DNA from: an uncultured bacterium
GTDB lineage: Bacteria > Patescibacteriota > Microgenomatia > Levybacterales > UBA12049
Direction of reading: 5' to 3'
Assembly: GCA_963826535.1 (NCBI GenBank)
Contig: CAWGXL010000001.1
Location: 78,336-142,335, forward strand
Length of the DNA stretch: 64,000 bases
The notes under the pieces are model-generated. The model searched no databases, was not told where the DNA came from, and saw only the letters and a program-made list of their open reading frames with translations. The position numbers were made by a program, and so were the translations under genes. Shown one piece after another: positions 14,952 through 50,732 of this stretch; within the stretch, counting starts at the first letter, position 1, and every line of letters begins with the position of its first letter.

Positions 14952-16127
14952 TCAAATATAATAAACGTTGGGCTTTGGGAAACCATTAAAGCGGCTTGTC
15001 ATCCCGATGCTATATGCTCCAGTGTCATGAATAACAAGCTTATCGCCTACATCAATATCGCTTGGCAAAAGCACTTCCCGAGTTATAACATCAGGACTAT
15101 CTCCCGTTGGGCCTGCTATCGCGAAAGAGGATTCCCCCGAATTTTTGACAGGTCTCATACTAGTTATTAAATATCGGGTAGATCCCTGATATGCCATAGC
15201 TTCAAACAAACCGTTATAACAACCTCCATCTAAAAATAACCAAGTGGAACCACGTCTTTCAACGCGAGCTATAACGCTGGCGACCATTATTCCTGTATCT
15301 GCAATAATTCCCCGGCCAGGCTCCAAAATTAATTTAGGCTCGTAAGGTAGTTTCTTGTATTGCTTTAACGTTAATTTTGCTATTTCTTTGAGAGTAGGCG
15401 CGTTCGCACTTGAGAGATATCTGCATGGATATCCGCCCCCCAGATTTAATACGTCCAATTTTATCCCCATATCTATTAAATCTTGAATTATTGAACGCAA
15501 ACTAACCAATGTATTTGCCCAGGCTTCAGAATCAGAAGCCTGTGACCCCACATGAAAAGAAATGCCATATGGATATAAACCAAGCTCTTTTGCTCTTTGT
15601 AGTAAAGGAATAATACTTGCCGTCTCTGCACCAAATTTTGAAGAAAACTTAAATACTGAACCCGAATCATTAGTTACGCTTCTGATATAAACTTTTGAGC
15701 CTGGTGCGCAAGCTGCAATTTTTTCAAGTTCCGGTAATGAGTCACATGCATACCGTTTTACTCCATATTTAAAACACTCCTTAATATGAATTGTTGATTT
15801 GACAGAAGTTCCATAAATAATTTTTTCAGCAGGCACTTTGATTTTTTTTAGCATATCAAGTTCGGAACTTGATGCCACTTCAAACCCTGAGCCAGCGTCT
15901 GATAGTATTTTCAATATCACCGGTTCAGAATTAGCTTTCATTGCGTAATAAATGGAAGAATTAGGAAAAAGTTTTTTAAACTGATTAAAGTTATTTATAA
16001 TTTTTTTCTCGCTAAAAAGAAAAAATGGAGTTTTATATGTTAGAGTCTCCAAAAACATCGGGTCAAAAGCCTTATTTGGATTTTTCCCTACTATACCCTT
16101 AATTTTATTCACAATTTTATTAACCAT
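14952..16127 (-). CDS. PLP-dependent decarboxylase, alanine-racemase fold (ornithine/diaminopimelate/arginine decarboxylase family)
   Basis: YAMKANSEPVILKIL (Lys-PLP region), FHVGSQASD, GGGYP and a C-terminal beta-barrel region; substrate not assignable from sequence. Confidence 0.75.
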   Translation of the reverse strand: MVNKIVNKIKGIVGKNPNKAFDPMFLETLTYKTPFFLFSEKKIINNFNQFKKLFPNSSIYYAMKANSEPVILKILSDAGSGFEVASSSELDMLKKIKVPAEKIIYGTSVKSTIHIKECFKYGVKRYACDSLPELEKIAACAPGSKVYIRSVTNDSGSVFKFSSKFGAETASIIPLLQRAKELGLYPYGISFHVGSQASDSEAWANTLVSLRSIIQDLIDMGIKLDVLNLGGGYPCRYLSSANAPTLKEIAKLTLKQYKKLPYEPKLILEPGRGIIADTGIMVASVIARVERRGSTWLFLDGGCYNGLFEAMAYQGSTRYLITSMRPVKNSGESSFAIAGPTGDSPDVITREVLLPSDIDVGDKLVIHDTGAYSIGMTSRFNGFPKPNVYYI

Positions 16128-23819: not shown

Positions 23820-24131
23820 ATGACTATTCTGGAAATCTCACAAGCTAATATATTAATATGGGTACTTTTTGGTTTGGTTGTAGGATCACTCGTCCATCTA
23901 CTCGATCCCGGGGAGATCAAAGGTGGCATATTCATGACAATTGGATTGGGCATACTTGGAGCTGTTGCCGGCGGCCTTCTATCTTCAGTCTTATTCAATA
24001 CAGCAATATCAGGCATTAATTTCCAAAATTTTGCCATAGCAGTAATCGGCGGCATAATCCTCGCAGTAATCTCCAGACTAATTTTCCGAAACCGAAATCA
24101 TATCAAAACAATAAACATGAAATTAAGATAA
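23820..24131 (+). CDS. GlsB/YeaQ/YmgE-family (transglycosylase-associated) small membrane protein
   Basis: Three TM helices with the Gly-zipper IGLGILGAVAGGLLSSVLF. Confidence 0.7.
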   Translation: MTILEISQANILIWVLFGLVVGSLVHLLDPGEIKGGIFMTIGLGILGAVAGGLLSSVLFNTAISGINFQNFAIAVIGGIILAVISRLIFRNRNHIKTINMKLR

Positions 24132-24176
24132 CCCGCGTGGGTGGGCCAGCTGAGCTAGACATCACCAAGCTTAGCT

Positions 24177-24252
24177 TGGTGGATCCTGCAAGATTCGAAC
24201 TTGCGACATTTGCAGTGTAAATGCAACGCTCTACCAGCTGAGCTAAGGATCC
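24177..24252 (-). tRNA. tRNA-Val (anticodon TAC), CCA encoded
   Basis: Minus-strand GGATCCTTAGCTCAGCTGGTAGAGCGTTGCATTTACACTGCAAATGTCGCAAGTTCGAATCTTGCAGGATCCACCA: perfect 7-bp acceptor, TTGCA/TGCAA anticodon stem, loop TTTACAC, GTTCGAATC T-loop. Confidence 0.9.
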
Positions 24253-24449: not shown

Positions 24450-25187
24450 CTAAGCTGCAAATCTCTTTGCAATAAACTGAATAGCCTCAACTAAGACTAT
24501 CCTATTATTATATTTTTGTATTATTAGTTTTAACTTCACTTTGTCACTTTTATAATTTTTGACTATTGAGATTAAAGTGGGCAGTGCCCGTACGATATTG
24601 TCAACAATTGTAATTGTAGCTTTTTGAGCTGTACGCGATAAAGGATTTAAATCAACAGTTATTACCTTTTTCCCGTTTTTGATCAAAGCCTCAGTTCTAT
24701 CCCCATCTTCAAGCGGTACAAATACAACATCAGCTTTCATTATGCCTGTGGGATTAACATATCTTCTATCGGAGTCTAGAAAAGGGATAATGCATCTCTC
24801 ATCAGGAAGCAGAATTTCTTTTGCACCGTTTTTAATTAAATGATTTTTGATTTTTATCAATCTTTCCTGCGACTTATGAAAGAGATTTACCTCAAGTGGA
24901 GCGTTTAATATCTTAGACATTGCTATTAACTCTTTAGATACAAGCGCTGCTGTGTTTCCGTTAACTGAAATTACCGGATGTTTTGCGAGCATAAGCAATG
25001 CTGCAGCCGCCTCCAGAGAACTCACAGCAAATCTATTTGTTTTTTCGCCAATAAGATAATCAAATGCCTCACCTCTACCTTGAGCTATCAAACCATTTAG
25101 AGAGGTAATGCCTTCCCGAACTCCTAATTCAATGCGTGTTCGGATTTTGAGCGAAATATATCGTGGATGAGATTTCGGTACATTCAT
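24450..25187 (-). CDS. putative 4-phosphopantoate--beta-alanine ligase (archaeal-type phosphopantothenate synthetase, PPS/DUF137 family)
   Basis: 245 aa, motif GRGEAFDYLIGEKT and overall architecture recalled from archaeal PPS; translationally coupled to the upstream GHMP kinase (ATGA overlap). Assignment is from memory of the family and needs HMM confirmation. Confidence 0.55.
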   Translation of the reverse strand: MNVPKSHPRYISLKIRTRIELGVREGITSLNGLIAQGRGEAFDYLIGEKTNRFAVSSLEAAAALLMLAKHPVISVNGNTAALVSKELIAMSKILNAPLEVNLFHKSQERLIKIKNHLIKNGAKEILLPDERCIIPFLDSDRRYVNPTGIMKADVVFVPLEDGDRTEALIKNGKKVITVDLNPLSRTAQKATITIVDNIVRALPTLISIVKNYKSDKVKLKLIIQKYNNRIVLVEAIQFIAKRFAA

Positions 25188-26023
25188 AAGATATGTGCTC
25201 CTTTATCTGAAACAGACAACCTTCTAGCCCCTTTAAATGGTTTATTACTAAACACAGCATTTCCCAACATAATCATTGAAGCATAACCATTATTCTTTTC
25301 AATATTCTTTATGGTTTCTATAACTTTTTTATCTGTCAATAATCCACTGTTTCTAGCAAATCCTTTCGATAGTCTAATTAAATCTTCAAATAACAACTTT
25401 TTCTCTGCCCTAATTAATATTCGTAATTTGTTCATAGCGCTTGTAGCTGATTTATTTATTTCGTCAACTACTTCCTTATTATTAATGATTGATTTAGTAG
25501 AGATCTTACTAAAATATACACAATAAACCGGAGTTTTATCAAACGAAAGCTTCTCAACTATAAAATGCGAACTTGGCTTAAATTTTACAATCATTCCTCC
25601 AAAATATTGACTCGCAACATCTCCAAGACCGGTTTTACTTATCACATCTGCAGTATGAGCAATAACTGCCAATTCTTTATTAGATTTTTTCAAATCCAAT
25701 AGTTTATTTAATGCATATGCGCTCGCCAATGCACTAGCCCCACTTATACCGAACCCACAACCCAATGGCAGAGAAGTATTTATATTTAATTTTATCTTCT
25801 GCTTTGTTAATAGTTGTATAACTTTTCTAACTGTTGGCAAGTTGATGGCTTTATCGTTAAAGAAAATTTTATTAGAATCTGATTTAACAACCTCAACTAT
25901 TACACCTTCCCGTATAGTAAATCCTAATCCATAAGAACCCATCCAACGCGGATCTTTATGCCCATAAATCTTAAAAATACAACTTATATTTCCCGGAGCA
26001 AACGCTCGTGCTTTGTGCATCAT
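25184..26023 (-). CDS. GHMP-family kinase, putative pantoate kinase (archaeal-type)
   Basis: GHMP motif 2 (PLGCGFGISGASALASAYAL) and N-terminal APGNISCIFKI; pairing with the PPS-like gene suggests pantoate kinase. Confidence 0.55.
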   Translation of the reverse strand: MMHKARAFAPGNISCIFKIYGHKDPRWMGSYGLGFTIREGVIVEVVKSDSNKIFFNDKAINLPTVRKVIQLLTKQKIKLNINTSLPLGCGFGISGASALASAYALNKLLDLKKSNKELAVIAHTADVISKTGLGDVASQYFGGMIVKFKPSSHFIVEKLSFDKTPVYCVYFSKISTKSIINNKEVVDEINKSATSAMNKLRILIRAEKKLLFEDLIRLSKGFARNSGLLTDKKVIETIKNIEKNNGYASMIMLGNAVFSNKPFKGARRLSVSDKGAHIL

Positions 26024-26090: not shown

Positions 26091-26378
26091 TTATTTTTTC
26101 GCCTTAACCCCCACGATCATCCTCCCCGCATTAACTCCACCCTTTGCCTTATGCTTTGTTTCCGCCGGAAACTCAACCCGGTCACCCTGACGAAAAGTCT
26201 TTGAACCCTCAAGGTTTGATATAGTTAATTCACCATTCAAAATCACATGCACCGTATGCTCATCGTGCGTATGCTCTCCCGAATCAAACCCCGCTTCAAT
26301 CGGACAAACCCGAATATTCTCAAATCCCTCCTGTTCCAATTTTTTAATCCACTCCTGTTCATTCATAGTTTTATTCAT
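26091..26378 (-). CDS. cupin-domain protein
   Basis: G(x)5HxH...E / ..H pattern (DSGEHTHDEHTVHVILNGEL ... GDRVEFPAETKHKA), 95 aa. Confidence 0.65.
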   Translation of the reverse strand: MNKTMNEQEWIKKLEQEGFENIRVCPIEAGFDSGEHTHDEHTVHVILNGELTISNLEGSKTFRQGDRVEFPAETKHKAKGGVNAGRMIVGVKAKK

Positions 26379-26382
26379 CTAG

Positions 26383-26464
26383 TGCGGACGAGAGGACTTG
26401 AACCTCCAAGCCTTGCGGCACAGCCACCTCAAGGCTGCGCGTCTGCCAATTTCGCCACGTCCGC
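26383..26464 (-). tRNA. tRNA-Leu (anticodon GAG)
   Basis: Minus-strand GCGGACGTGGCGAAATTGGCAGACGCGCAGCCTTGAGGTGGCTG + long variable arm + GGAGGTTCAAGTCCTCTCGTCCGCA; anticodon loop TTGAGGT. Confidence 0.85.
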
Positions 26465-27405: not shown

Positions 27406-27418
27406 AGGGTTACTTCTG

Positions 27419-27502
27419 TGCCCAAGAGAGGACTTGAACCTCCACGCCTTTTCAGGCACAGCGTCCTGAACGCTGCGTGTCTGCCAGTTTCACCACCTGG
27501 GC
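27419..27502 (-). tRNA. tRNA-Leu (anticodon CAG)
   Basis: Minus-strand GCCCAGGTGGTGAAACTGGCAGACACGCAGCGTTCAGGACGCTG...GGAGGTTCAAGTCCTCTCTTGGGCA; anticodon loop TTCAGGA. Confidence 0.85.
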
Positions 27503-28398: not shown

Positions 28399-28483
28399 GG
28401 GCCTGTGGCGGAACTGGCAGACGCGTACGGTTTAGGACCGTATCCCGAAAGGGGTGGAGGTTCAAGTCCTCTCTGGCCCACCA
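28399..28483 (+). tRNA. tRNA-Leu (anticodon TAG), CCA encoded
   Basis: GGGCCTGTGGCGGAACTGGCAGACGCGTACGGTTTAGGACCGTA + variable arm + GGAGGTTCAAGTCCTCTCTGGCCCACCA; one T-T mismatch in the acceptor stem. Confidence 0.8.
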
Positions 28484-30198: not shown

Positions 30199-30270
30199 GG
30201 ACTCGTAGCTCAGTGGTAGAGCGCTTCGTTGACATCGAAGAGGTCAGAGGTTCGATACCTCTCGGGTCCA
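30199..30270 (+). tRNA. tRNA-Val (anticodon GAC)
   Basis: GGACTCGTAGCTCAGTGGTAGAGCGCTTCGTTGACATCGAAGAGGTCAGAGGTTCGATACCTCTCGGGTCCA; anticodon loop TTGACAT; no CCA encoded. Confidence 0.85.
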
Positions 30271-30332
30271 CTATAGATTTCTAAAGCACGATTAACATCC
30301 CTCTTTATTTTTTGCTATACTAACTTCAACCT

Positions 30333-38243: not shown

Positions 38244-40592
38244 TTAAAGATTTATCTCTCCTAAATTAAGAACCGACGTTGGAGTCGGACCCTCCGTTAC
38301 TTCAGGTACCGGAGTATTTGTAGCAGCTGGGACCTGTGCAGCTCCCGGAGTGGGAGTAGGCGTAGGCGCACTTCCGCTAGTATTTTTATTTTCATTCCTT
38401 ACCTCATCCGGTGGATGATACATCTTATCATCCCTATGCTCAGTATTGAGCCACTCATCAATCGCTTTCTGCCAACGATTCTCGCCATCGGTTGAAGCTG
38501 GATCTGTCTCTTTGAATACCAAATAATTCTGCCCGTCCTTACTTCGATAAATTGAAGATTCTGATGTCGGTTCAGTGCCTTTTATAAAATACTCTGACCG
38601 GGTCCCTTGCCCCCCATGAGGCAAACCGCCCGCAAAAGCATCTACTTGCAATGCCACAACTTTGTCCGGCTTATTTGGCTGCTCATCTGATTTATTCTTC
38701 AAAACATGACTCATAATTTTATTCCAAATTGGCGAAGCGCCGGTAATACCCGACGCTATAGCAGGATCCATCGGAGAATTGTCACTATTCCCCACCCAAA
38801 CACCCGCTACAAATGAAGGAGTATAGCCGACAGTCCAGTTATCTCTTTTCTCATCGGTTGTTCCGGTCTTAACAGACACCGTCTTGCCCGACACTCCCAG
38901 CCAGGACTGTGTCCCGAATGCTGTCGCTCGCGCATTACTATCTAACAAAATATGTGAAATTATAAATGCGATTTCTTCAGAAAGTACCCTCTTCCCTTCC
39001 TTCTTTTTATATTCAAAAAGCTCACGTCCATTACTGTCTTTTACCTTCAATATCGAAACCGGATCTTGCCGGACTCCTTTATTCGCAAACACACTATATG
39101 CGGTAATCTCATCCATAAGCGATGCACCGCGCCCGCCTAACGCCAGCGACAATCCTACTTGTGACTTATTTTCAGCTGTCGGCTCCCAATTTCTGATCCC
39201 CATGTCATACGCCTTCTTCATCCCCGCATCGATACCAACAAGCGCCATCACTTTCACTGCCGGAATATTGAATGAATTACCCAATGCAAAACGCAGTTGT
39301 GTTGGTCCATGAAATTTCCCGTCATAATTTACCGGAACATATGGCTTCCCCGGGTCATTACTTGGGAATTCAGTCCGGGTATCTATCAACATAGTTGCTG
39401 CAGTATATCCTTTCTCAAATGCAGCCGCATAAATAATAGGCTTAAGCGATGAACCTGGATTTCTATTATTTGAAGTCGCGACATTGAAATTACCGTCAAT
39501 ATCTTCATTGAAATAGTCTTTACTTCCGACCATCGCCAAAATCTCACCCGTCTTTGGATCCACCACCACTGCGGCAGCGTTATTAACATCATAATTCTTC
39601 AATTTATCAATCTCCTCTTTCACGATTTCCTCTGCTTTTTTCTCTAGTTCATAGTCAAGTGTCGTTGTAACCTGCAACCCGCCGCCCAAAACAGTTTGAG
39701 CGCCAAACTGTTCCTCCAATTTATCTTTTACATACATCACAAAATGAGGTGCTTTTATTGACGAATATTTCTGTGAAAACTTAAATCGCCCAACCTGCTT
39801 ATATGCCTCGTCAGATTCAGCTTGACTAATATACCCATTTTCGACCATCTGTTTTAAAACTGCCTTTGTCCTTCCCAAATAATATCTATTACCGCTAAAC
39901 GGCGAATAAAGACTCGGACTCTGCGGCAAACCTGCCATAAAAACAGACTCTGCCAAAGTCAGCTTATTTGCCGGTTTTCCGAAATACATTTCACTTGCAG
40001 CTTCAGCCCCAATAGCTGTACCACCATAAGGAATATTATTCAAATACATCTCCAGGATCTCGTCCTTACTGTATTTCTGATTAACCTGTATTGAAAGTAT
40101 AAGTTCTTTAATTTTTCTAGGCAGACTACGTTCTGGAGAAAGAAGCACATTTTTAACAAGTTGCTGGCTGATTGTTGAACCTCCTGCCAACCCTTTACCC
40201 TCTAAATAATTCTTAACGACACGAAGATACGCGACAGGAGAAAACCCTTTATTTTCATAAAAATCTTCGTCCTCTATTGCAATAGTAGACTCCCGAAGCG
40301 ACTGTGGAATGTCCGTTAGCTTTACATAAGTCCTGTTCTCGTCTTGATAAACAGAGTAAAGCAGTACACCTTTTTTATCATAGATTCTTGTTGCGTCTTT
40401 ATACTTCGAAGCAATTAGTTTTCCCGGAGTAGGCAGATCACGGCTGTACCAAACAAAAAGAACCGGCACTGCAATAATGCATGCGACAATTCCCAAAAAA
40501 AATATTATGAGTGCTTTATTAAACACCTTCAACCAAGGTACCCGAACACCATCTCTCCCACGCCTGCGTCGTCTGGAAGTTCTATAGTCCAT
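38244..40592 (-). CDS. class A penicillin-binding protein (PBP1A: glycosyltransferase + transpeptidase)
   Basis: N-terminal TM, GT51 motifs (EDxxFYxHxG, GGSTISQQLVKN), transpeptidase SxxK/SxN/KTG (..SGKTVSVKTGTT..), and a Pro/Thr-rich C-terminal tail. Confidence 0.9.
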   Translation of the reverse strand: MDYRTSRRRRRGRDGVRVPWLKVFNKALIIFFLGIVACIIAVPVLFVWYSRDLPTPGKLIASKYKDATRIYDKKGVLLYSVYQDENRTYVKLTDIPQSLRESTIAIEDEDFYENKGFSPVAYLRVVKNYLEGKGLAGGSTISQQLVKNVLLSPERSLPRKIKELILSIQVNQKYSKDEILEMYLNNIPYGGTAIGAEAASEMYFGKPANKLTLAESVFMAGLPQSPSLYSPFSGNRYYLGRTKAVLKQMVENGYISQAESDEAYKQVGRFKFSQKYSSIKAPHFVMYVKDKLEEQFGAQTVLGGGLQVTTTLDYELEKKAEEIVKEEIDKLKNYDVNNAAAVVVDPKTGEILAMVGSKDYFNEDIDGNFNVATSNNRNPGSSLKPIIYAAAFEKGYTAATMLIDTRTEFPSNDPGKPYVPVNYDGKFHGPTQLRFALGNSFNIPAVKVMALVGIDAGMKKAYDMGIRNWEPTAENKSQVGLSLALGGRGASLMDEITAYSVFANKGVRQDPVSILKVKDSNGRELFEYKKKEGKRVLSEEIAFIISHILLDSNARATAFGTQSWLGVSGKTVSVKTGTTDEKRDNWTVGYTPSFVAGVWVGNSDNSPMDPAIASGITGASPIWNKIMSHVLKNKSDEQPNKPDKVVALQVDAFAGGLPHGGQGTRSEYFIKGTEPTSESSIYRSKDGQNYLVFKETDPASTDGENRWQKAIDEWLNTEHRDDKMYHPPDEVRNENKNTSGSAPTPTPTPGAAQVPAATNTPVPEVTEGPTPTSVLNLGEINL

Positions 40593-40650
40593 AAGAAGTC
40601 TAAGTATTATACCAAACCCGAGATTACTTATGCTATACTTGCGCTAATAC

Positions 40651-40680
40651 CCTGTCATTCCCGCGAAGGCGGGAATCCAG
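40651..40680. repeat. GC-rich hairpin repeat unit (ctgtcattcccgcgaaggcgggaatcc)
   Basis: Perfect 7-bp stem ttcccgc/gcgggaa with a GAAG loop; shares the GTCATnCCG..CGAAG motif with 10161-10208 and 36153-36270. Confidence 0.45.
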
Positions 40681-40695
40681 TAGGCTATAAACATT

Positions 40696-41907
40696 ATGGA
40701 CAAGATCGAAGAAATACTAACCCGCGGAGTAGCCAATATCATTCCGAACAAACAAGAACTGGGAAAGCTTCTCCGCTCAGAAAAAAAAATAAACGTATAC
40801 TTAGGCATAGATCCAACATCGCCCCATATCCACCTTGGCCATGCCCTTCCTCTCAGGAAATTACAAGCCTTAGCAGAGCTTGGACATAACGCCACTTTAC
40901 TTATTGGTGATTTTACCGCACTAGTAGGCGATACTTCAGACAAAGAATCCGAAAGGCCCATGCTTACAAAAGAAGAGATCAATAAAAATTTTCAAACATA
41001 CAAAAACCAAGCGGAAAAAATCGTTAATTTATCAAAAGTAAAAATCAGATATAACAGCGAATGGTTAAGTAAACTGAGCTTTGAGGATGGTATAAAACTT
41101 CAGAAAAAATTTTCCCTGAACGATTTTAGCAGTCGGGAATTGATTAAAAAAAGATTAATTGAAGGAAAACACGTTCGACTGGATGAAACATCATATCCAC
41201 TAATGCAGGGTTATGACAGCTACATCTTAGATACTGATATTCAGTTGGGAGCAGCAGATCAAACATTTAATATGCAAGCAGGCCGTACCTTACAGAAAAT
41301 ATTACGAAATAAAGAATCCTTCATTATCGCCAATGACTATCTGGAAGGCACAGATGGGCGGAAAATGAGCAAATCCTGGGGTAATGCGATTTGGCTCGAC
41401 GATTCAGCTGAAGATATGTACGTCAAAGTCATGGCAATCAAGGATGATTTAATTATTCAATACTTCACCCTTGCAACAAATCTCCCCCTTCAAGAAATAG
41501 ATGATATAAAAAAATCACTCGAAAAAAACAAGAATCCCATGGCTCTTAAAAAACAATTAGCCTTTGAAATTACTTCCGAATTACATGACAACATCACAGC
41601 CCAAAAAGCAGCTGAAAACTTTGAAAAAACTGTACAAAAAGACGAAATGCCTACAATTATTCCAACACTAGAAATTTCCATAAATGATACTATTACTACT
41701 TCAGATGTTGTGGTGGAATTAAATCTTGCAACTAGCAAATCTGAAGCTAAAAGATTATTTGATCAAGGTGGCGTAAAAATAAATGGAGCATCAATTAGTA
41801 ACTCTCAAGCTTTGTTCAAACCATTTCTAAAAAATAGTGAGGCAATTATCCAAGTTGGCAAACGAAATTTCAAAAAAGTTAAACACAAAATGTCCCTTAA
41901 TTCTTGA
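40696..41907 (+). CDS. tyrS: tyrosyl-tRNA synthetase
   Basis: HIGH-like (PHIHLGH), KMSKS (KMSKSWGN) and a C-terminal S4-like domain. Confidence 0.95.
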   Translation: MDKIEEILTRGVANIIPNKQELGKLLRSEKKINVYLGIDPTSPHIHLGHALPLRKLQALAELGHNATLLIGDFTALVGDTSDKESERPMLTKEEINKNFQTYKNQAEKIVNLSKVKIRYNSEWLSKLSFEDGIKLQKKFSLNDFSSRELIKKRLIEGKHVRLDETSYPLMQGYDSYILDTDIQLGAADQTFNMQAGRTLQKILRNKESFIIANDYLEGTDGRKMSKSWGNAIWLDDSAEDMYVKVMAIKDDLIIQYFTLATNLPLQEIDDIKKSLEKNKNPMALKKQLAFEITSELHDNITAQKAAENFEKTVQKDEMPTIIPTLEISINDTITTSDVVVELNLATSKSEAKRLFDQGGVKINGASISNSQALFKPFLKNSEAIIQVGKRNFKKVKHKMSLNS

Positions 41908-41908
41908 G

Positions 41909-41935
41909 ACGTTCATGAATCTGAACGTGCCTTGA
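41909..41935 (+). terminator. possible weak intrinsic terminator after tyrS
   Basis: Hairpin acgttca-tgaatc-tgaacgt followed by a short T-containing tract; weak. Confidence 0.3.
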
Positions 41936-42094
41936 TTCGTATTTATTAATTCTATATAATAACCCTGTTATGGAATTTTTTCGCAAACATCCAATAATAG
42001 GAAGAGTCATAATCATTATCGCCGGCCTGGCTCTAATTGCCACCTCCTTCCTCCCATTCTTCATGTTGTAGTGAAAAAGCATTACCCACAATTA

Positions 42095-42123
42095 TTGACA
42101 TGCAGATTCATAAAAGGTAATAT
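42095..42123 (+). promoter_or_regulatory. candidate sigma70 promoter for the DUF433/PIN-like pair
   Basis: TTGACA (42095-42100), 17-nt spacer, TAATAT (42118-42123), 12 nt before the 42136 start. Confidence 0.45.
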
Positions 42124-42135
42124 AACACTAAATTT

Positions 42136-42357
42136 ATGAAATATTTAAATTCTGATCCAAAAATTATGGGCGGCGATCTGGTAATAAAGGGCACCAGGAT
42201 TCCTATTGATGTAATTCTTTACAGGCTCAAGGACGGTTATTCCATTCAGGAAATCCATCGTATGTACCCCACGCCTACTCTGGAAACCTTAAAGGGAGCA
42301 ATAGGAGAGGCAATCGACCTTCTTACAACCAAAATTCATGGTAAAGAGATTTTATAA
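42136..42357 (+). CDS. DUF433-family small protein (putative antitoxin-like partner)
   Basis: 73 aa; ...IMGGDLVIKGTRIPIDVILYRLKDGYSIQEI... matches recalled DUF433 conservation; overlaps the downstream gene. Confidence 0.6.
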   Translation: MKYLNSDPKIMGGDLVIKGTRIPIDVILYRLKDGYSIQEIHRMYPTPTLETLKGAIGEAIDLLTTKIHGKEIL

Positions 42358-42697
42358 ACATAAACTTTTATTGGACGAAAACATGCCGCTACGCTCAGAC
42401 CTCCCTCAGCTAAATAAACATTTTGACGTAAAGCATGTTGATCATGATCTTAAACAAGGCGGAATATCAGATCAAAAAGTATATAACCTTGCTGTTACTC
42501 AGAAACGAATCATAATCACTCGTAATACAAAACACTTTCTTCCTCTCGCCGGCACTAAGGCTGATGTTGGCATTATTGGTATACCTCCACATTGGTTCAC
42601 CACTCAAGTAGATAATAAATTAATCTCATTTCTCAAAACCAAAACTCCCAAAACCTTACGAAAAAAACTAATCCCATTGAGTAAAGTACAAAAATAA
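42338..42697 (+). CDS. DUF5615/Mut7-C-like PIN-fold protein (putative toxin partner)
   Basis: 119 aa, LLLDENMP...DQKVYNLAVTQKRIIITRNTKHF; DUF433-DUF5615 gene pairs recur in bacteria. Confidence 0.5.
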   Translation: MVKRFYKHKLLLDENMPLRSDLPQLNKHFDVKHVDHDLKQGGISDQKVYNLAVTQKRIIITRNTKHFLPLAGTKADVGIIGIPPHWFTTQVDNKLISFLKTKTPKTLRKKLIPLSKVQK

Positions 42698-42708
42698 TCT
42701 AACTACTT

Positions 42709-44952
42709 ATGTGTGGCATAGCAGCTATAATTGGAAAAAACAAACAAGAAGCCACAGATCTAAAAAAGATGCTTTTGCCAATTTTGCACAGAGGCGAAAA
42801 GAAGTATTTCAATGAAAGCTTAGATTTGGGCAAATGCGTGCTAGGAATGAATCGCCTCGCTATTGTTGATAGGGAAAAAGCAATACAACCAATTAAATCC
42901 AATAATGGCAAATTTTATATTGTTTATAACGGCGAAATCTATAACTATAAAGACTTGCAAAAAGAATTAATATATAAAGGATACAAGTTCTCAACAAATT
43001 CAGACACAGAAGTTTTGGTTAATGGCTACCAGGAATGGGGCGAAAAATTATTAGATAAAATCAGCGGCATGTTTGCTTTCTTCATTTATGATAAACAAAC
43101 AAATAGCTTTTTTGCCGCAAGAGACCCAATTGGGGTTAAACCGCTCTACTGGGCTAAGGACGACCAAGACAATTACTATTTTGCCTCCGAAATTAAATCA
43201 TTGGTAATTCTAAAACAGATCGAAAAAGTTAATCTATTCCCACCCGCTCATTTCATGAAAAATGGAAACATAATGCGTTACTGGAATATGCCGCAAGTAG
43301 CTGAAGAATATCCAAGCGAAGCAGAAGCAGCACGGACAATAAAAGAATTATTTGAGCGGGCAGTGCAAATTAGAGTTCAAACAGATTTACCCATCGGCGT
43401 ATACCTGAGTGGAGGCATAGATAGCACCTCTGTTATTGCCATGGCAAGAAAATTTCATCCTGACGTGACTGCGATCATTATGGGCAACGATAGTTCGGAA
43501 GATAAGGAAATCGCCCTGCGTTACTGTAAAGAGTTTGGAGTTAACTATTCCTTAGTTACCCCGCCAAAGGAGACAGCAATAATTGAGAAAGATATTCCCC
43601 GCACAATTGAGGTTACGGAAAGCTTTGAGCCAAACATGATACGGCCTTCAACACTTTCACGGTATTTAGCTAAAGGCGCAAAAGATGCGGGATTAAAAAT
43701 AATATTATGCGGCGAGGGTTCAGATGAACTTTTTGCCGGTTATCCGGAATTTTCTACTCTGCCAGGTCCCCAAGAAGTAGATGATGCATGTCGCGCATTT
43801 CTCAATGACCTTCATCGCACCCAACTCCAGCGTGTTGACAGAACATCCATGGAAGTTACAACCGAAGTCAGAGAACCTTTCCTTGATAAAGAATTGGTTG
43901 AATATGTCATGAAATTACCGGCACATTTTAAAATAAAAAAGGACGGGAACGAAACCATTACAAAATATATTTTGCGAATTGCCACGACTTCCGAGCTGCC
44001 TGACTACATAGTTAATAGAAAAAAAGTTGTCTTAAACGAGGGCGCAGGCTACAGCGGCAACCAAAAAACAAGCTTTTTTGCCGACAAAATAGCAGAACGG
44101 GTTTCAGATAAAGAATTCAATCAGTATCTCAATGATTATAAAGACTGGAGCCTTGAAACAAAAGAAGAAGTCTATTATTTTAAATTGTTTAAATCATTCG
44201 GCTATGATAAAGCGGTTTTCAATAAAGTCCGAACCGTCGTTAATAAAACAGCTACATTACAAAACGATATTAAATTCGCTCAGAAAATTTTAGAAAGTTT
44301 CGATACATGGAAATTCAAGAGAGAACAACCAAAAACAGAAGGAAAGATGCGGGAAGCCATATTACACGCAGTCCGGTCAAAAAACCCAATACAGTTTGTC
44401 ATGTACTGGGGGAAAGATGAAAGATCTGTTGCCGGAGAGAAAGAGAGGAGGGCTATTTCATACCTAAAACAAATGCTCGACACAATACACAAGAAATACC
44501 CACCCGGCGCAATTTTAACTTTTATTTTAAACGATACACACGCCGAATTGAACGGTTATACCAAATCGCAAATCGACCACTATTTCGATTCAATCGTTAA
44601 ACAGGCAAAACAAGGAGATTTTGAAACTACTCGCTTAAGCACGCTGGCAGCTTTCAACGAACAAATCCTTATGAAAAAGAAAGACGATGTTAAGATACCT
44701 GACGCGCTGCTAAAACTTTTAGTCGTGACGTCTAAAAAGCATTGCAAACGATACGATCCCGATACAGGAGCGAAACTCTACTATCTACAAAATCAGATTG
44801 AGAAAAAAGAAATTGAACAAAATTACCCCAACTCTATTTTTCTAACCTACAACGGCAGTGAACTGGATAAAATTTTACCGCTCAAATTGCCAATTTTTTA
44901 TATGTACTCTATTAAAGAAGGAAGAAGCATAAAGCCTTGGTTTGATGATTAA
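42709..44952 (+). CDS. asnB: asparagine synthetase B (glutamine-hydrolysing) with ~220-aa C-terminal extension of unknown function
   Basis: MCGIAAIIGK N-terminal nucleophile Cys2, GATase-2 domain, PP-loop SGGIDSTSV; 747 aa against ~550 typical. Confidence 0.85.
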   Translation: MCGIAAIIGKNKQEATDLKKMLLPILHRGEKKYFNESLDLGKCVLGMNRLAIVDREKAIQPIKSNNGKFYIVYNGEIYNYKDLQKELIYKGYKFSTNSDTEVLVNGYQEWGEKLLDKISGMFAFFIYDKQTNSFFAARDPIGVKPLYWAKDDQDNYYFASEIKSLVILKQIEKVNLFPPAHFMKNGNIMRYWNMPQVAEEYPSEAEAARTIKELFERAVQIRVQTDLPIGVYLSGGIDSTSVIAMARKFHPDVTAIIMGNDSSEDKEIALRYCKEFGVNYSLVTPPKETAIIEKDIPRTIEVTESFEPNMIRPSTLSRYLAKGAKDAGLKIILCGEGSDELFAGYPEFSTLPGPQEVDDACRAFLNDLHRTQLQRVDRTSMEVTTEVREPFLDKELVEYVMKLPAHFKIKKDGNETITKYILRIATTSELPDYIVNRKKVVLNEGAGYSGNQKTSFFADKIAERVSDKEFNQYLNDYKDWSLETKEEVYYFKLFKSFGYDKAVFNKVRTVVNKTATLQNDIKFAQKILESFDTWKFKREQPKTEGKMREAILHAVRSKNPIQFVMYWGKDERSVAGEKERRAISYLKQMLDTIHKKYPPGAILTFILNDTHAELNGYTKSQIDHYFDSIVKQAKQGDFETTRLSTLAAFNEQILMKKKDDVKIPDALLKLLVVTSKKHCKRYDPDTGAKLYYLQNQIEKKEIEQNYPNSIFLTYNGSELDKILPLKLPIFYMYSIKEGRSIKPWFDD

Positions 44953-45024
44953 AACTCTATATATTTTTAGAATTACAACAAATATAGACACTTAAAGACA
45001 AAAATTGTATAATCACTTAAAATT

Positions 45025-45456
45025 ATGAACAAAACAGACAATAAACTAAAGAAAGAGATAACATCCTGGCTTCAACGATTTGCAGAAATGGTCAGAAGCA
45101 AAAAATATACCGATGCTGAAGAATTCTTTGATAAAAATACATTTGGTTTTGGCACTATTGCTGCCCTATATTCAAACCTTGCCGAATACGAAACCAAACA
45201 ATGGAAAGAGTGCTGGGGTACGACGAAAGACTTTGAATTCGATTATTCGACTCTGCAATTTATAACAAGTGACGACAAGAGCCTCATAGTCATAGGCATT
45301 ATGTGGAAAAGCATTGGCGTCAAACCCGATGGTTCGGAATTTCCCCGAGAAGGAAGAACTACAACAGTTCTGAAACGTGACAAAAAAACCGGATCACTTA
45401 TAAGTGTTCATAATCATTATTCCCGTGTGCCGAAAAATTTCCCAGATGATTTTTGA
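45025..45456 (+). CDS. NTF2/SnoaL-like fold protein, putative
   Basis: 143 aa, alpha+beta cone-like pattern; weak assignment. Confidence 0.35.
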   Translation: MNKTDNKLKKEITSWLQRFAEMVRSKKYTDAEEFFDKNTFGFGTIAALYSNLAEYETKQWKECWGTTKDFEFDYSTLQFITSDDKSLIVIGIMWKSIGVKPDGSEFPREGRTTTVLKRDKKTGSLISVHNHYSRVPKNFPDDF

Positions 45457-45589
45457 ACAGAATACCTGAAGCCCCTTTTATATGTCGATCCGAGATATTA
45501 AATAACAAACTAATCCCGCTCAATCAAGAAAAATAAGTTTTAGCCAAATAAATGACAAACAAGAGTTACCTGATATAATATATACCTGA

Positions 45590-46810
45590 ATGGAACCTAC
45601 CAGCGAAATAGAACATGGACGTAATGAGAAAGATAAAAAAATAGAAAGACCTAAGCCCCTTGAAAAACCATGCATAGAAAACATTCCTCCTAACGAAAAC
45701 CTTCAAACCATAGAAGAGTTAGAAGCAACAAGACGGGAACTAGCCGAAACATCTTCTAGAAAAGAAACCCAAAGTGCTGATAATCCAAATCCTAATATTA
45801 TTCCCTCCGACAACGAAACTCTAATACAAATTGCAAATGGCCGGTGGATTGACTATAATTCACAGCGTGATATTTACAACAATCAAAAAAGAAAAGCTTA
45901 TTTTGGAGAACCAAAACCGGAAACATGGTTAACCTCATTTGCCTCAAAAATAAAACCGCTAAGAAACATCACTCGTATGGTAGGTGACTTTGTCCTATCA
46001 TTTCAAAGCCGTTCTGAAAAAGAATCTCTGAAACTTGCCGTAGTCAACGCAACAATTCTCAGTCGCAGAGAAATACTTGACAACCCCAAATTCCAAAATC
46101 TTTTACAAATTGAGGAGAATAATGAACATCTAATGAATTTACTGGATCAGGAGATTTTTCGTGAAGTAAACTGCCGTACTATTTTGATGTTGGAGGGACT
46201 ATCTCCGGCACAATTTCATTTATTAGCCAAACAAATGGGAGATAACCCGCGTGCATTTCTTTCTGATGATAGAAGAGAAAATGCCGGAAGGTTTGCAGCT
46301 GACAACAAACTCCCCCCGGATGGAAAACATCCATTCGTCCCGGACGACGACCCTGACTCTGAAGCCGAAAAAGTCCTTTGGGGGCCTGTCTTTCCAGAAC
46401 TAAAGTGGATACCAATAATAAAGGACTGGAGAATGTCCAGAACACACGCAGTAATTTACGCTGTTAAAGACTCCGAAGGCAACGATATTCTGTTACTTCC
46501 GGTTCATGTTGACCCGAAAACCCCCGTTGCTGCACTCAAATTTGGTAAGGATGCACTCAAATATCATCAATCTACCGACATTGGACAATTAGGAAATGCA
46601 AAATACGTCGGCACAGGATTATATGATCTTGGAATTAAATATTTCTTAAAAAAATTAAATGGTGCAAAAAATCAAGGCTTATTTGCGGATCTAAATGTCA
46701 CAGGAGTGGAAAAACTTACTACAACAAATAAAATAACCCGGGATGATAAAATAACCGATTATATCAATGGAATTGTTTTACAGGAAAAGCAAGCAGATAA
46801 ACCAACATAG
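45590..46810 (+). CDS. hypothetical protein (406 aa)
   Basis: Long ORF with coding composition and an acidic N-terminal region; no motif recognised. Confidence 0.4.
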   Translation: MEPTSEIEHGRNEKDKKIERPKPLEKPCIENIPPNENLQTIEELEATRRELAETSSRKETQSADNPNPNIIPSDNETLIQIANGRWIDYNSQRDIYNNQKRKAYFGEPKPETWLTSFASKIKPLRNITRMVGDFVLSFQSRSEKESLKLAVVNATILSRREILDNPKFQNLLQIEENNEHLMNLLDQEIFREVNCRTILMLEGLSPAQFHLLAKQMGDNPRAFLSDDRRENAGRFAADNKLPPDGKHPFVPDDDPDSEAEKVLWGPVFPELKWIPIIKDWRMSRTHAVIYAVKDSEGNDILLLPVHVDPKTPVAALKFGKDALKYHQSTDIGQLGNAKYVGTGLYDLGIKYFLKKLNGAKNQGLFADLNVTGVEKLTTTNKITRDDKITDYINGIVLQEKQADKPT

Positions 46811-46851
46811 GTATTGCAATTTAATAGCGGATCATCCAATAATATAGATAC

Positions 46852-47730
46852 ATGCTAATCTATATCCTGTTTGGTTTATTAGGAGGAATACATAGAGCTT
46901 TATGGGGAGCATACAAAGATTCGCCACATGAGCCATATAAAATATCCAAGTCTATTCGAAGTATTGTCATAGCTACGCTTTGGGGAATTATCCTCTTTAT
47001 AATTTTCCCAATCATTGGCATTAAAAGCGAAACTGTATCGCCGGTATACATATTCCTGATGGTAATTGCGCTAGACACTATAACTACAGAATTTTATAAA
47101 CTATTTATAAGAACGGAGCCTCAGGGAAAGTACGCTATCCCATCAATGTTCCACGCGTGGAGTACTCATATTCCAAATTATCAAAGGCTAATCATGTGCA
47201 TAGTATTAACTCTTTTCCTGGGAACCCTTTTTTATATACTATCTCAAATTAATACATCTTTAATACAAGTACCGCAAATAGCAACCGGTACTCTTACGGG
47301 CATATATGGAGGCGTTGCAATAGCATATCTCGAGCTAGTTGGAATTATCCTTTTACAGAGTGCTATACGCGGCGGATCCGTGGGTCTTGTGGGTGGAGTT
47401 ATGGAAGCAACAGGAGGAATGTGGAAAGATGCTCCATTTGAAGGCCTCGAACCACTAAAATTTTTCCGCAGTCCATTGGTAGGTCTTTTTTGGGGAACAG
47501 TTTTAGCTCTTAATCAAACGAATCTTGCAATACTCTTTATTTCAGTATTAGGAGCCGACCGGATGACTATTGAACTATATAAAACTTTCATAATTAAAAA
47601 AAGGATAGGTAAATTCAAAGCTAATACGCCTATTTTTCCAACATGGATTAAAAAAAGAAACATTTTTGTATTACCTTACTTCACAACATGGGTAATATTC
47701 CTTATTTTTTTAATTTTAGCCTTCAGATAA
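46852..47730 (+). CDS. polytopic membrane protein, family A copy 1 (internal 2-fold repeat)
   Basis: GAYKDSPHEPYK ... TEFYKLFIRTEPQGKY ... GMWKDAPFEGLEPLKFFRSPLVG ... ELYKTFIIKK; paralogous to 47788-48570. Confidence 0.5.
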   Translation: MLIYILFGLLGGIHRALWGAYKDSPHEPYKISKSIRSIVIATLWGIILFIIFPIIGIKSETVSPVYIFLMVIALDTITTEFYKLFIRTEPQGKYAIPSMFHAWSTHIPNYQRLIMCIVLTLFLGTLFYILSQINTSLIQVPQIATGTLTGIYGGVAIAYLELVGIILLQSAIRGGSVGLVGGVMEATGGMWKDAPFEGLEPLKFFRSPLVGLFWGTVLALNQTNLAILFISVLGADRMTIELYKTFIIKKRIGKFKANTPIFPTWIKKRNIFVLPYFTTWVIFLIFLILAFR

Positions 47731-47787
47731 ATCCGCTTACTCAACAAAATGTTTAAAGTCTGATAGCTCCCAATTTCGTCCATAACT

Positions 47788-48570
47788 CTAGACTAGAAAT
47801 CTAAATAAATATAAGAGAAAAAACAATGATGCAAAATAAAACGGTACAAATAACATTCTTTTTTCTAACCAATCTTTATGATGAACTTTACTCGATCCGA
47901 ATTTCCCCGGCCAATATCCTTTTTTAATAAAAGTTTTATACAACTCAACAATCACTCTCTCAATTCCCACGGCGCTCAGAATTATAAAAAATACATTATC
48001 AGTAAGTCGTGAAGCAAACAACCCACCCAATATACCAAGAAGTGGACTGCGTAAAAATTTAAGCGTATCAAACCCCTCAAAAAACCCGTCTTTATAAGAT
48101 CCTGCAATTGCTGTACCTAAACCTATCAAAAATCCCAATATAAGACCTTTAATTAGAATAGGAAAACCTGCAAGGCCATACTCTCCAAGAATATAAATTC
48201 CTAAAATACCCAATATTGGTATAACGCCAATAAAAAGTCTTTCTAATCTGCTATTAATAATTTTTCCAAATAAATGTATCTGCGTGGGTATCTTGTATAA
48301 ACTCTGGTTTTCGGTTCTGATAAATAATTTGTAAAATTCGGTGATACATCTTGATAATGCAAAAATAACAAGAAACACAATGACATATTCTTCATTTCCT
48401 GCCCATTGATATACTGAAAACAATAAACCGATTGCGCTGGCTATTAATAATTCGCGGACAACGCGCGCGGGCTTAAACCCCTCATATGGTGAATCTTTAT
48501 ACGCCCCGTAACTAGCTGCATGAATACCCGCCATAATTCCGATCAACAATGGATAAAAATTTTCTAACAT
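47788..48570 (-). CDS. polytopic membrane protein, family A copy 2
   Basis: GAYKDSPYEGFK ... TEFYKLFIRTENQSLY ... SYKDGFFEGFDTLKFLRSPLLG ... ELYKTFIKKG; convergent with copy 1. Confidence 0.5.
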   Translation of the reverse strand: MLENFYPLLIGIMAGIHAASYGAYKDSPYEGFKPARVVRELLIASAIGLLFSVYQWAGNEEYVIVFLVIFALSRCITEFYKLFIRTENQSLYKIPTQIHLFGKIINSRLERLFIGVIPILGILGIYILGEYGLAGFPILIKGLILGFLIGLGTAIAGSYKDGFFEGFDTLKFLRSPLLGILGGLFASRLTDNVFFIILSAVGIERVIVELYKTFIKKGYWPGKFGSSKVHHKDWLEKRMLFVPFYFASLFFLLYLFRFLV

Positions 48571-48638
48571 ACTAATTAACCAACTAAAAATAGTGTAGCA
48601 TAATTCATACGCTTATTTGCTATAATCCAAATAATATT

Positions 48639-50732
48639 ATGACACTACAAACTCCTCTGACGCAAGCAGACAGACTCCACAAAATGTACGCCAAACGACT
48701 CGAAAAATTAGGGATCACAACACTTGAAGACTTTTTATATCATTTGCCTAGTCGCTATGAAGACTATTCGGTAATTTCAAAAATCAGCCAGGTCCAGCAG
48801 GGGGAAACAGTCACAATTCAGGGTAAAGTGCTCGTTGCCAAAAATCAATATCTCCGCAACGCTAGAATAAGAACTATTCAAAAAGCAACTATTATTGATG
48901 AAACAGGAAATATAGAACTTACCTGGTTTAACCAACCATTCCTTATAAATTCGCTCCAAAAAAACAGCAGAATATCCGTGTCCGGTAGAGTTGAGAAATC
49001 AAAAAATAAATTATACATGCAGTCTCCGGAATTCGAAATTCTTTTAAATGACCGGACAAATCCCATACACACCGGTCGCTTAATTCCGGTTTATCCTGAA
49101 ACCAAAGGTGTTACGTCTAAATGGCTCCGCCGCCAAATCCACAAAATCCTACAGGATTATAAAATTGAACTCCAGGAATATCTTCCTCCGGAAATCATCC
49201 GGAAATTCCGCTTTTTGAGCTTTGCGCAGGCAATTCAGGAAATCCATTTCCCCAAAGACTTTGAGCTTGCATCACTTGCCAGAGACCGTTTGAGTTTTGA
49301 CGAATTATTCCTTCTCCAACTGGCAAGTATCAAAAGACGCGATGAATGGCAGCATATCAAAACAGGAAACCCATTAGAAATAGAAAAATATCAAAACGAA
49401 CTTAATAAATTTATTGCATCTCTCCCTTTTATATTAACCAACGCCCAACAACGAGCGGTTAAAGAAATACTTAATAACCTTAAGCAAAATAAACAAATGA
49501 ATAGACTACTTCAAGGAGACGTGGGAAGCGGAAAAACAGTCGTCGCCGCAATCGCGATGTACGCTGCATACCTGAATAACTACCAGTCAATATTTTTAGC
49601 ACCAACAGAGATTTTAGCGCAGCAGCATTTTGCAACAATCACCAAACTCTTATCACCGTTAGGAGTAAAAGTTGACTTAGTAACCGGAAGCAAAAAAAGT
49701 ATAAAGAATCAAGAAGTAACTATTAAGCCAAAAAATGCTAAAAAAATACTTAATACTAAATACTTAATACATAATACCAATGTCTTAGTTGGCACTCATG
49801 CTCTATTAAATGAAAAAATAAAACTTGATAATCTTGCCCTGGTTGTCATAGATGAACAGCAACGTTTTGGAGTTGAGCAAAGAGGCCTTATACGCAAAAA
49901 AGGAGAAAACACCCATTTATTGACCATGACCGCGACCCCGATTCCGCGAACTGTTGCGCTAACTATGTACGGCGACTTAGACTTGTCTTACCTCAACGAA
50001 ATGCCAATTGGTAGGAAAAAAGTAAAAACCTGGCTTGTACCGGTAGAAAAAAGAGAAGGAGCATATAACTGGATCAGGAAACAAATCAAAGAAACCAATT
50101 CCCAAACGTTTATAATTTGCCCTTTCATCGAAGAATCCGAAAGCATGCAGACAGTCAAAGCCGCAGCCATTGAATACGAATACTTAAAAAAAGAGGTCTT
50201 TCCGGATCTCAAACTCGGCTTACTCCACGGAAAATTGAAGCCCATTGAAAAAGAACAAACCATGCATGATTTCAAAAATAAAAAGACCGACATTCTGGTC
50301 GCTACTCCTGTTGTTGAAGTAGGTATCGATATTCCGAATGCTACTATAATTCTGATTGAAGCATCAGAGCGCTTCGGACTTGCTCAACTGCACCAACTCA
50401 GAGGGAGAGTGGGCAGGGGAGAGAAACAATCATTCTGCTTACTTTTTTCCGGGTCGCAAAACGATCAAACTACCAAACGCCTCAAAGCTTTAGAATCAAT
50501 CTATTCAGGTGCTGAACTTGCCGAATTAGACCTAAAGCTTCGCGGACCGGGGGATTTATACGGCACGGCACAACATGGAATACCCAAATTAAAAGTTGCT
50601 TCTTTTTCTGACACACAACTTATCCAACAAGCCAAAAATGTTGCTGATGAAATTTTCCCTAATTTATCAACCTATCCGCGTCTTGAACAAAAAATAAACA
50701 CCCTGACTCGAAAAAAAGTTTCCCCTGATTAA
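48639..50732 (+). CDS. recG: ATP-dependent DNA helicase RecG
   Basis: Wedge/OB N-terminal domain, Walker A GDVGSGKT, DEQQRFG (DEAH-like), QLRGRVGRG motif VI, C-terminal TRG-like region. Confidence 0.9.
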   Translation: MTLQTPLTQADRLHKMYAKRLEKLGITTLEDFLYHLPSRYEDYSVISKISQVQQGETVTIQGKVLVAKNQYLRNARIRTIQKATIIDETGNIELTWFNQPFLINSLQKNSRISVSGRVEKSKNKLYMQSPEFEILLNDRTNPIHTGRLIPVYPETKGVTSKWLRRQIHKILQDYKIELQEYLPPEIIRKFRFLSFAQAIQEIHFPKDFELASLARDRLSFDELFLLQLASIKRRDEWQHIKTGNPLEIEKYQNELNKFIASLPFILTNAQQRAVKEILNNLKQNKQMNRLLQGDVGSGKTVVAAIAMYAAYLNNYQSIFLAPTEILAQQHFATITKLLSPLGVKVDLVTGSKKSIKNQEVTIKPKNAKKILNTKYLIHNTNVLVGTHALLNEKIKLDNLALVVIDEQQRFGVEQRGLIRKKGENTHLLTMTATPIPRTVALTMYGDLDLSYLNEMPIGRKKVKTWLVPVEKREGAYNWIRKQIKETNSQTFIICPFIEESESMQTVKAAAIEYEYLKKEVFPDLKLGLLHGKLKPIEKEQTMHDFKNKKTDILVATPVVEVGIDIPNATIILIEASERFGLAQLHQLRGRVGRGEKQSFCLLFSGSQNDQTTKRLKALESIYSGAELAELDLKLRGPGDLYGTAQHGIPKLKVASFSDTQLIQQAKNVADEIFPNLSTYPRLEQKINTLTRKKVSPD

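Follow-up and report, generated by a model that had tools for sequence, protein, structure and literature searches.

In Thermococcus kodakarensis, phosphopantothenate is made by a well-characterized route through pantoate kinase (PoK) together with phosphopantothenate synthetase (PPS), which has been described as "unique to the archaea" (PMC6650551). The canonical bacterial enzymes PanC and CoaA or CoaX bring about the same net conversion, of pantoate, beta-alanine, and ATP to 4'-phosphopantothenate, but belong to protein families unrelated to PoK and PPS and act in the opposite reaction order (PMC6650551, PMC7883664). It has been suggested that these two routes could serve as a marker to tell the domains apart (PMC7883664), and one published exception was found: Entoporibacteria carry archaeal PoK and PPS in place of PanC and PanK, which was read as horizontal transfer, and a euryarchaeal affinity was suggested for the poribacterial genes (Thomes & Lescure 2020, Genome Biol Evol, PMC7883664). 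Bacteria of the candidate phyla radiation (CPR) are not mentioned in that work, and a full-text literature search returned no report linking pantoate kinase or phosphopantoate to CPR, Patescibacteria, Microgenomates, or Cloacimonadota. Here, we analyzed a 64-kb stretch of contig CAWGXL010000001.1 (the window) that contains adjacent genes for a 279-amino-acid (279-aa) PoK-like protein and a 245-aa PPS. We consider it likely that these genes make up a PoK-PPS module with translational coupling, carried by a CPR host of the Microgenomates group, and that the module descends from an operon of DPANN archaea. The window represents a new host lineage, with a better-resolved donor, for the kind of exception reported in Poribacteria in 2020; it holds no new chemistry and no new kind of system.

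The 245-aa protein matched Pfam family PF02006 at 231.5 bits (E 6e-69; cutoff, 26.4), the NCBIfam equivalog model for 4-phosphopantoate--beta-alanine ligase (NF041123) at 304.4 bits (cutoff, 300), and the subfamily model NF010324 at 340.2 bits (cutoff, 227). Against the PDB, it aligned to T. kodakarensis PPS (3WDK) with 235.5 bits (E 5.1e-69, residues 1 to 242) and to 4MB0 with an E value of 2.7e-66. At 77 of the 79 columns that are at least 90% conserved in 46 non-DPANN archaeal PPS sequences, the window protein has the conserved residue, and the two exceptions, A to S57 and L to M90, are conservative. By all tests applied, the 245-aa protein is a phosphopantothenate synthetase, with the corresponding activity predicted; a preliminary description of the window had placed it in the DUF137/PPS family, and the PF02006 search that it called for bore this out.

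The 279-aa protein carries the GHMP kinase N-terminal domain (PF00288, 49.9 bits; cutoff, 22.3) and, at residues 86 to 100, the GHMP phosphate-binding motif Pro-x-Gly-x-Gly-x-x-Ser-Ser/Gly-Ala (PLGCGFGISGASALA). Its top NCBIfam matches were the pantoate kinase models NF040725 (164.5 bits, E 2.5e-48) and NF041122 (92.5 bits), which are built on methanogen and Thermoplasma types; because these scores fall under the curated equivalog cutoffs of 380 and 500, respectively, we filed the protein as divergent DPANN-type PoK-like. Other GHMP models trailed, with 42.7 bits for homoserine kinase and 37.1 bits for mevalonate kinase. The best PDB sequence match was T. kodakarensis PoK (6JBC, residues 5 to 259) at 63.7 bits versus 36.3 bits in the comparison with other GHMP subfamilies. 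An AlphaFold2 model of the protein (pLDDT 94.5) gave 6JBC as the top Foldseek match of the predicted fold (template modeling [TM] score, 0.84; E 1.5e-21), with other GHMP structures at TM scores of 0.72 or less and E values of 1.2e-14 or more. Assignment as a homoserine, mevalonate, or shikimate kinase was ruled out by score and fold. The preliminary description had called the protein a pantoate kinase and had named a different GHMP kinase as the contrary outcome; PoK was the best match by hidden Markov model (HMM), PDB sequence, and predicted fold, but the assignment does not extend to the curated equivalogs. On these comparisons, the 279-aa protein is a divergent DPANN-type pantoate kinase and not a strict equivalog, with predicted activity on pantoate.

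Relative to the T. kodakarensis enzymes PoK (TK2141, 6JBC) and PPS (TK1686, 3WDK/3WDL/3WDM), the window proteins belong to the same two families and would have the same chemistry. The window PPS aligns over its full length (235 bits), and PoK shares the predicted fold but is approximately 25% identical to 6JBC and has N12, C15, and K147 in place of the H, G, and R of the archaeal PoKs sampled outside the DPANN-type subfamily. Residues S94, H123, D126, D135, and T176 of the window PoK align to S104, H131, E134, D143, and T186 of T. kodakarensis PoK, which we take to have catalytic roles, and T. kodakarensis R155 aligns to a lysine. Whereas TK2141 and TK1686 are presumably unlinked, the window genes overlap as one unit, and they reside in a bacterial host. 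They are adjacent on the same strand, and the end of PoK (...CAT ATC TTA TGA) overlaps the start of PPS (ATG AAT GTA CCG) by 4 nucleotides, an arrangement that would allow coexpression. The ATGA coupling of a GHMP kinase to a 245-aa protein had been noted in the preliminary description, and both open reading frames (ORFs) and the overlap were recovered here. PoK has 278 aa if the second Met is the start, as in database entry P0121.

In the proposed pathway, PoK would convert D-pantoate and ATP to 4-phosphopantoate, PPS would join 4-phosphopantoate to beta-alanine to give 4'-phosphopantothenate, and CoaBC, CoaD, and CoaE would carry this product on to coenzyme A (CoA) (PMC6650551). The pair would follow the "archaeal" reaction order and stand in for bacterial PanC and CoaA/CoaX, none of which was found among the ORFs of the 64-kb window scanned against Pfam; the window ORFs of at least 110 aa outside that scan read from sequence as pilins, PheS/PheT, tyrosyl-tRNA synthetase (TyrRS), and L20. 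The rest of the CoA pathway would be encoded elsewhere in the genome. Action of the kinase on pantoate is suggested by its coupling to PPS and by the CoA gene clusters around its relatives, which are arranged as coaBC-PoK-PPS, panB-coaBC-PoK-PPS, and panE-panB-PoK-PPS-coaBC.

The genes of the window that could be identified are all bacterial, in keeping with the preliminary description, which had taken the genome to be bacterial. In Pfam scans of the ORFs on both sides of the pair, these included a type IV pilus cluster (PilM), TrmD, OmpR-type regulators with HisKA kinases, a MurNAc-L-Ala amidase (amidase_2), a Crp-family regulator, trigger factor, threonyl-tRNA synthetase, IF3, a class A penicillin-binding protein (PBP), asparagine synthase, and RecG. 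The named relatives of the window RecG are Levybacteria (approximately 64% identity), a phylum of the Microgenomates group within Patescibacteria/CPR. On its RecG relatives and synteny, the host is assigned to the CPR, in the Microgenomates group near Levybacteria. A RecG labeled Methylomirabilota and a PoK labeled Saccharimonadales both sit among Levybacteria-like sequences. A compositional anomaly of the pair was looked for and rejected: the GC contents of PoK (0.324) and PPS (0.362) and their unremarkable codon-usage divergence lie inside the window range (mean GC, 0.375; standard deviation, 0.032). Composition is weakly informative here because DPANN donors look similarly AT rich; names of DPANN metagenome-assembled genomes (MAGs) such as "..._38_11" suggest approximately 36 to 40% GC.

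The closest relatives of the window PPS (71%, 67%, and 69% identity) lie on contigs with bacterial neighbors, namely a class A PBP, OmpR-type regulators, a resistance-nodulation-division (RND) adaptor, NadD, and NadE, and two of these three contigs have the order coaBC-PoK-PPS. A further related bacterial contig, of 1,142,061 bp, carries a PoK (58% identity) and a RecG (67%) 216 kb apart and has the same PBP-TyrRS-RecG synteny as the window at 38244 to 50732. As judged from these contigs, the pair is neither an assembly artifact nor unique and is chromosomal in related bacteria. Two observations concern other loci of this lineage. In related CPR genomes L085 and L091, the next gene downstream of coaBC-PoK encodes an archaeal-type phosphoenolpyruvate (PEP) carboxylase (PF14010 PEPcase_2; L085 11093 to 12601 and L091 13132 to 14640), and PPS was not found within 10 kb of coaBC-PoK; these loci would add another archaeal-type gene in the lineage and are a sign of a CoA module undergoing rearrangement or erosion. 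The L085 PoK has N in place of the conserved T176.

Among the best 80 PPS loci, the nearest named PPS sequences are from Woesearchaeota/Nanoarchaeia (63 to 68% identity), followed by Roizmanbacteria and Gottesmanbacteria (59 to 60%), Poribacteria (57 to 59%), Cloacimonadota (53 to 55%), and then other archaea. The nearest named PoK sequences are likewise from Woesearchaeota/Nanoarchaeia (55 to 61%). The two DPANN contigs that were checked, JACPMS010000022.1 (L001/L089) and CAZRRL010000012.1 (L002/L090), encode Orc1/Cdc6, deoxyhypusine synthase, and an archaeal helicase domain near panB-coaBC-PoK-PPS and are genuinely from archaea. They share with the window the PoK-PPS order, the ATGA overlap, and the PoK signature residues, S151/H153 included; these genomes keep panB and coaBC upstream, where the window carries a cupin gene and a tRNA gene instead. 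On CAZRRL010000012.1 (3757 to 5799), a 680-aa fusion of PanB (Pantoate_transf) and CoaBC (Flavoprotein plus DFP) lies directly upstream of PoK-PPS. This ATGA junction is shared by the Woesearchaeota/Nanoarchaeia loci L001, L002, L003, L006, L007, L015, and L024; of the bacterial loci, L081 and L084 also have it, and L082 has a GTGA junction. Public labels reading "Uncultured Methanosarcinales archaeon (binchicken)" look wrong, as the records group with Woesearchaeota/Nanoarchaeia; MAG records with doubtful labels are L002, L004, L008, L009, L012, L026, L027, P0290, and L091.

In neighbor-joining (NJ) trees, a superclade of DPANN, CPR, and Poribacteria sequences was separated from other archaea with bootstrap support of 188/200 for PPS, 100/100 for PoK, and 100/100 for CoaBC. 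Within it, the window and the other bacterial-context copies formed a clade in the PPS tree (187/200) and in the PoK tree (61/100 once the 1.14-Mb genome was included). The PoK tree placed this bacterial clade as sister to core Woesearchaeota (75/100), inside further Woesearchaeota branches. Residue signatures of PoK follow the same grouping. S151 together with H/Y153 is limited to Woesearchaeota and the window's bacterial clade, and these positions are G/P in all non-DPANN archaea and most other sequences; N12, C15, and K147 are common to the whole superclade, with H, G, and R in every other sampled archaeon. The window PoK retains 34 of the 43 positions that are at least 90% conserved in other archaeal PoKs, the same level as the DPANN PoK mean (0.78), and the nine substitutions, among them H12N, G15C, and R147K and a replacement of T43, read as clade-wide signatures and not as random decay.

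The pair lies on a bacterial contig, is chromosomal in relatives, and nests in the NJ trees, at moderately supported nodes, within the presumed donor group, with which it shares derived characters. It was apparently transferred across domains as a block from a Woesearchaeota-like DPANN source. The ancestral module would have been a DPANN coaBC-PoK-PPS operon gained by interdomain horizontal transfer, and the window module would since have parted from coaBC to lie between tRNA genes. The preliminary description had raised interdomain transfer, of the kind often proposed for CPR/DPANN co-residents, and had called for a phylogeny against archaeal homologues; as it had guessed, both the phylogeny and the synteny indicate a source among DPANN archaea, and in the NJ trees the bacterial clade nests within Woesearchaeota/Nanoarchaeia.

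Other bacteria hold the pair in different forms. Roizmanbacteria L028 and Gottesmanbacteria L033 and L034 belong to the same bacterial superphylum as the window host, but their PoK is 39 to 42% identical to that of the window, coaBC lies downstream, and S151/H153 are lacking; their copies form a separate clade (187/200), which probably represents a separate acquisition or a deep split. L028 (Roizmanbacteria MFZK01000010.1, 7547 to 15409) is a CPR locus in which the panE-panB-PoK-PPS-coaBC cluster is complete; genes for a phosphoribosyltransferase, RmuC, and the small and large subunits of a NiFe-hydrogenase come after it. The poribacterial copies belong to the same DPANN-type superclade as the window, yet they come from a different phylum and a separate clade (Poribacteria plus L025, 169/200), and the poribacterial loci sampled showed no coaBC within 10 kb of the pair. 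In the NJ trees of PPS and PoK, the poribacterial sequences (L010 to L025) lie near Nanoarchaeota L020 and L023. The PoK/PPS/CoaBC set of Cloacimonadota (L029 to L031 and L040) was acquired separately and clusters with sequences from TACK or Thermococci.

Several points weigh against descent of the window module from a DPANN operon. The comparison covers the best 80 of at least 302 PPS loci found in a scan of GTDB species representatives, its trees are bootstrapped NJ trees from Kimura-corrected distances between tblastn segments, the internal nodes that decide the direction of transfer have moderate support (61 to 75%), a clade uniting all CPR copies has weak support (51/200), and the window was placed taxonomically from one marker (RecG) and synteny. 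An alternative history, in which the module arose or diversified in CPR and then passed to Woesearchaeota/Nanoarchaeia, or in which both groups took it from an unsampled archaeal lineage, would accommodate those nodes and the distribution of CPR copies over at least two clades. It would also fit the sharp gap that PPS, PoK, and CoaBC alike show between the superclade and all other archaea. In addition, Nanoarchaeota have been listed among the archaea without PoK and PPS (Shimosaka et al. 2019, PMC6650551), so that the DPANN copies need not be ancestral. However, PoK and PPS are near universal in archaea and rare in bacteria, the successive Woesearchaeota branches within which the PoK tree nests the window clade all have the derived S151, and the DPANN loci keep the fuller operon, including panB; we regard this alternative history as unlikely. 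Doubt also attaches to the kinase, whose substrate is not certain because its scores lie under both equivalog cutoffs and nine of 43 conserved positions are changed, including the otherwise invariant H12, G15, T43, and R147. The DPANN-type GHMP kinase could act on another small hydroxy acid, or the pair could serve salvage or another pathway, and the window lacks pantoate-supplying genes: tblastn with relatives' sequences found no coaBC, panB, or panE in the 64 kb, and no Pfam match for coaBC, coaD, coaE, panB, panE, or panD was obtained among the window ORFs scanned. Against such a role, HMM, sequence, and fold comparisons all favor PoK by a wide margin, the kinase is tightly and conservedly coupled to a canonical PPS, an enzyme that uses 4-phosphopantoate as its substrate, and superclade members cluster with panB, panE, and coaBC, which makes a kinase of other specificity quite improbable.

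The absence of coaBC from the whole window, when it is adjacent to the pair in most relatives, could alternatively mean that the pair is a decaying remnant, out of a working pathway and heading for loss, and the coaBC-PoK loci of L085 and L091 with no nearby PPS suggest a module breaking up in the lineage. Yet both window ORFs are full length and undisrupted, 77 of 79 invariant positions are retained in PPS, PoK is conserved as much as functional-looking DPANN copies, and the overlap junction is preserved, so a remnant is very unlikely. Joining of an archaeal fragment into a bacterial contig, during assembly or binning, was considered in view of the tRNA genes that bracket the pair, which are conserved sequences at which assemblers can misjoin, and of the nearest named homologues, which are archaeal. 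The nearest homologues overall, however, lie in four other bacterial-context contigs, including the chromosome-scale 1.14-Mb contig, and form the 187/200 clade with the window. An archaeal insert would span just approximately 1.6 kb, the GC content and codon usage of the pair match the host, and the flanking tRNA-Leu genes are paralogous to other tRNA-Leu genes of the window. An artifact is the least credible of these explanations, and descent from a DPANN operon remains the preferred reading.

A common grouping of all CPR copies was not supported in the NJ analysis (51/200), so Microgenomates may have gained the module on more than one occasion. A wider scenario, which we offer tentatively and think somewhat less likely than its contrary, is that the DPANN-type module (panB/coaBC-PoK-PPS) has repeatedly crossed between bacteria and DPANN archaea, entering Microgenomates at least twice (once for the Levybacteria-like clade of the window and once for that of Roizmanbacteria and Gottesmanbacteria), and that the poribacterial genes came from the same pool and not from Euryarchaeota. 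In that case, a section of the CPR would normally make phosphopantothenate de novo by the "archaeal" route, and ultra-small bacteria would make a CoA precursor with genes traded with co-resident ultra-small archaea. The window itself would provide an operon-level example of metabolic gene exchange between CPR and DPANN, two ultra-small radiations that share groundwater habitats, and it bears on how far reduced-genome organisms depend on hosts for cofactors. It also concerns annotation: the DPANN-type PoK subfamily is currently missed by curated equivalog models, and many related kinases are labeled "hypothetical protein" or "GHMP kinase" in databases, with some related PPS proteins correctly named by NCBI.

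The features of the locus are listed in Table 1. The cupin gene fills the slot held by coaBC in relatives. Its product had no match in an NCBIfam search, its GC content (0.438) and GC content at third codon positions (0.448) are both the highest among the window ORFs analyzed, and its codon usage is the most deviant among them. Between 24177 and 30271, five tRNA genes in approximately 6 kb are interleaved with single protein genes; ARAGORN and Rfam agree on the Val-TAC, Leu-GAG, and Leu-CAG genes that the preliminary description had placed near the pair.

Table 1. Features of the PoK-PPS locus in window coordinates
Feature	Coordinates	Strand	Details	Source
PoK gene	25184..26023	minus	279 aa, contains PLGCGFGISGASALA	Open reading frame list
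PPS gene	24450..25187	minus	245 aa, contains GRGEAFDYLIGEKT	Open reading frame list
ATGA stop/start overlap (PoK-PPS coupling)	25184..25187	minus	4 nt	Read from DNA
Cupin-domain protein gene	26091..26378	minus	95 aa; PF07883 Cupin_2, 27.9 bits; directly upstream of PoK	
tRNA-Val(TAC)	24177..24252	minus	Downstream boundary of the pair	ARAGORN; Rfam RF00005, 73.5 bits
tRNA-Leu(GAG)	26382..26464	minus	Upstream boundary of the cupin-PoK-PPS stretch	ARAGORN; Rfam RF00005, 50.8 bits
tRNA-Leu(CAG)	27418..27502	minus		ARAGORN, Rfam
tRNA-Leu(TAG)	28399..28483	plus		ARAGORN, Rfam
tRNA-Val(GAC)	30199..30271	plus		ARAGORN, Rfam

Insertion of a mobile element at the flanking tRNA genes was considered and rejected. 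No att-like direct repeats bracket the pair, the sole long repeats around it being the similarities among the tRNA-Leu genes, which are clear paralogues (73 to 88% identity over aligned stretches), and Pfam scans of neighboring ORFs showed no integrase or transposase. An Rfam scan with permissive settings around the pair returned tRNAs only and no hidden RNA elements. Promoter-like and terminator-like matches around the pair were at chance level, and therefore a transcription unit is not definable. Just downstream of tRNA-Val(TAC), a tRNA-like fragment at 24129 to 24165 on the minus strand contains a 12-nucleotide copy of the D arm (CCAGCTGAGCTA) at 24146 to 24157, which is repeated at 24234 to 24245, and then a short GC-rich hairpin. 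Neither ARAGORN nor Rfam calls this fragment, which may be a tRNA remnant or a terminator.

Three regions of the window away from the pair were also of note. At 14952 to 16127 (minus strand), a pyridoxal phosphate-dependent decarboxylase of the ornithine/diaminopimelate/arginine family, with LysA as its best match (215 bits; cutoff, 298), adjoins an EamA transporter and a family 3 solute-binding protein. The gap between TyrRS and RecG at 42338 to 48570 (approximately 6.2 kb) has no counterpart in the 1.14-Mb relative, in which TyrRS and RecG are adjacent (L087). It contains a 119-aa ORF, a 747-aa asparagine synthase, and several ORFs without a family, and it includes two convergent genes for paralogous membrane proteins (46852 to 47730, plus strand, and 47788 to 48570, minus strand) that share the motifs GAYKDSP.E and TEFYKLFIRTE; neither paralogue had a Pfam match, and one was also without an NCBIfam match. 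At the end of the window, an unusual cluster on the minus strand (51949 to 63951) encodes a 1716-aa protein in which a PPDK_N domain (PEP synthase-like, ATP binding) is followed by three phosphohistidine "swivel" (PEP-utilizers) domains, together with proteins of 493 and 444 aa that each have one C-terminal swivel domain, an aspartate/ornithine carbamoyltransferase-like protein that scores under all equivalog cutoffs, and an Amidohydro_3 protein. The 1716-aa ORF has its N terminus approximately 50 nucleotides from the window edge, and the alignment of this terminus to the PPDK_N profile begins at profile position 77.

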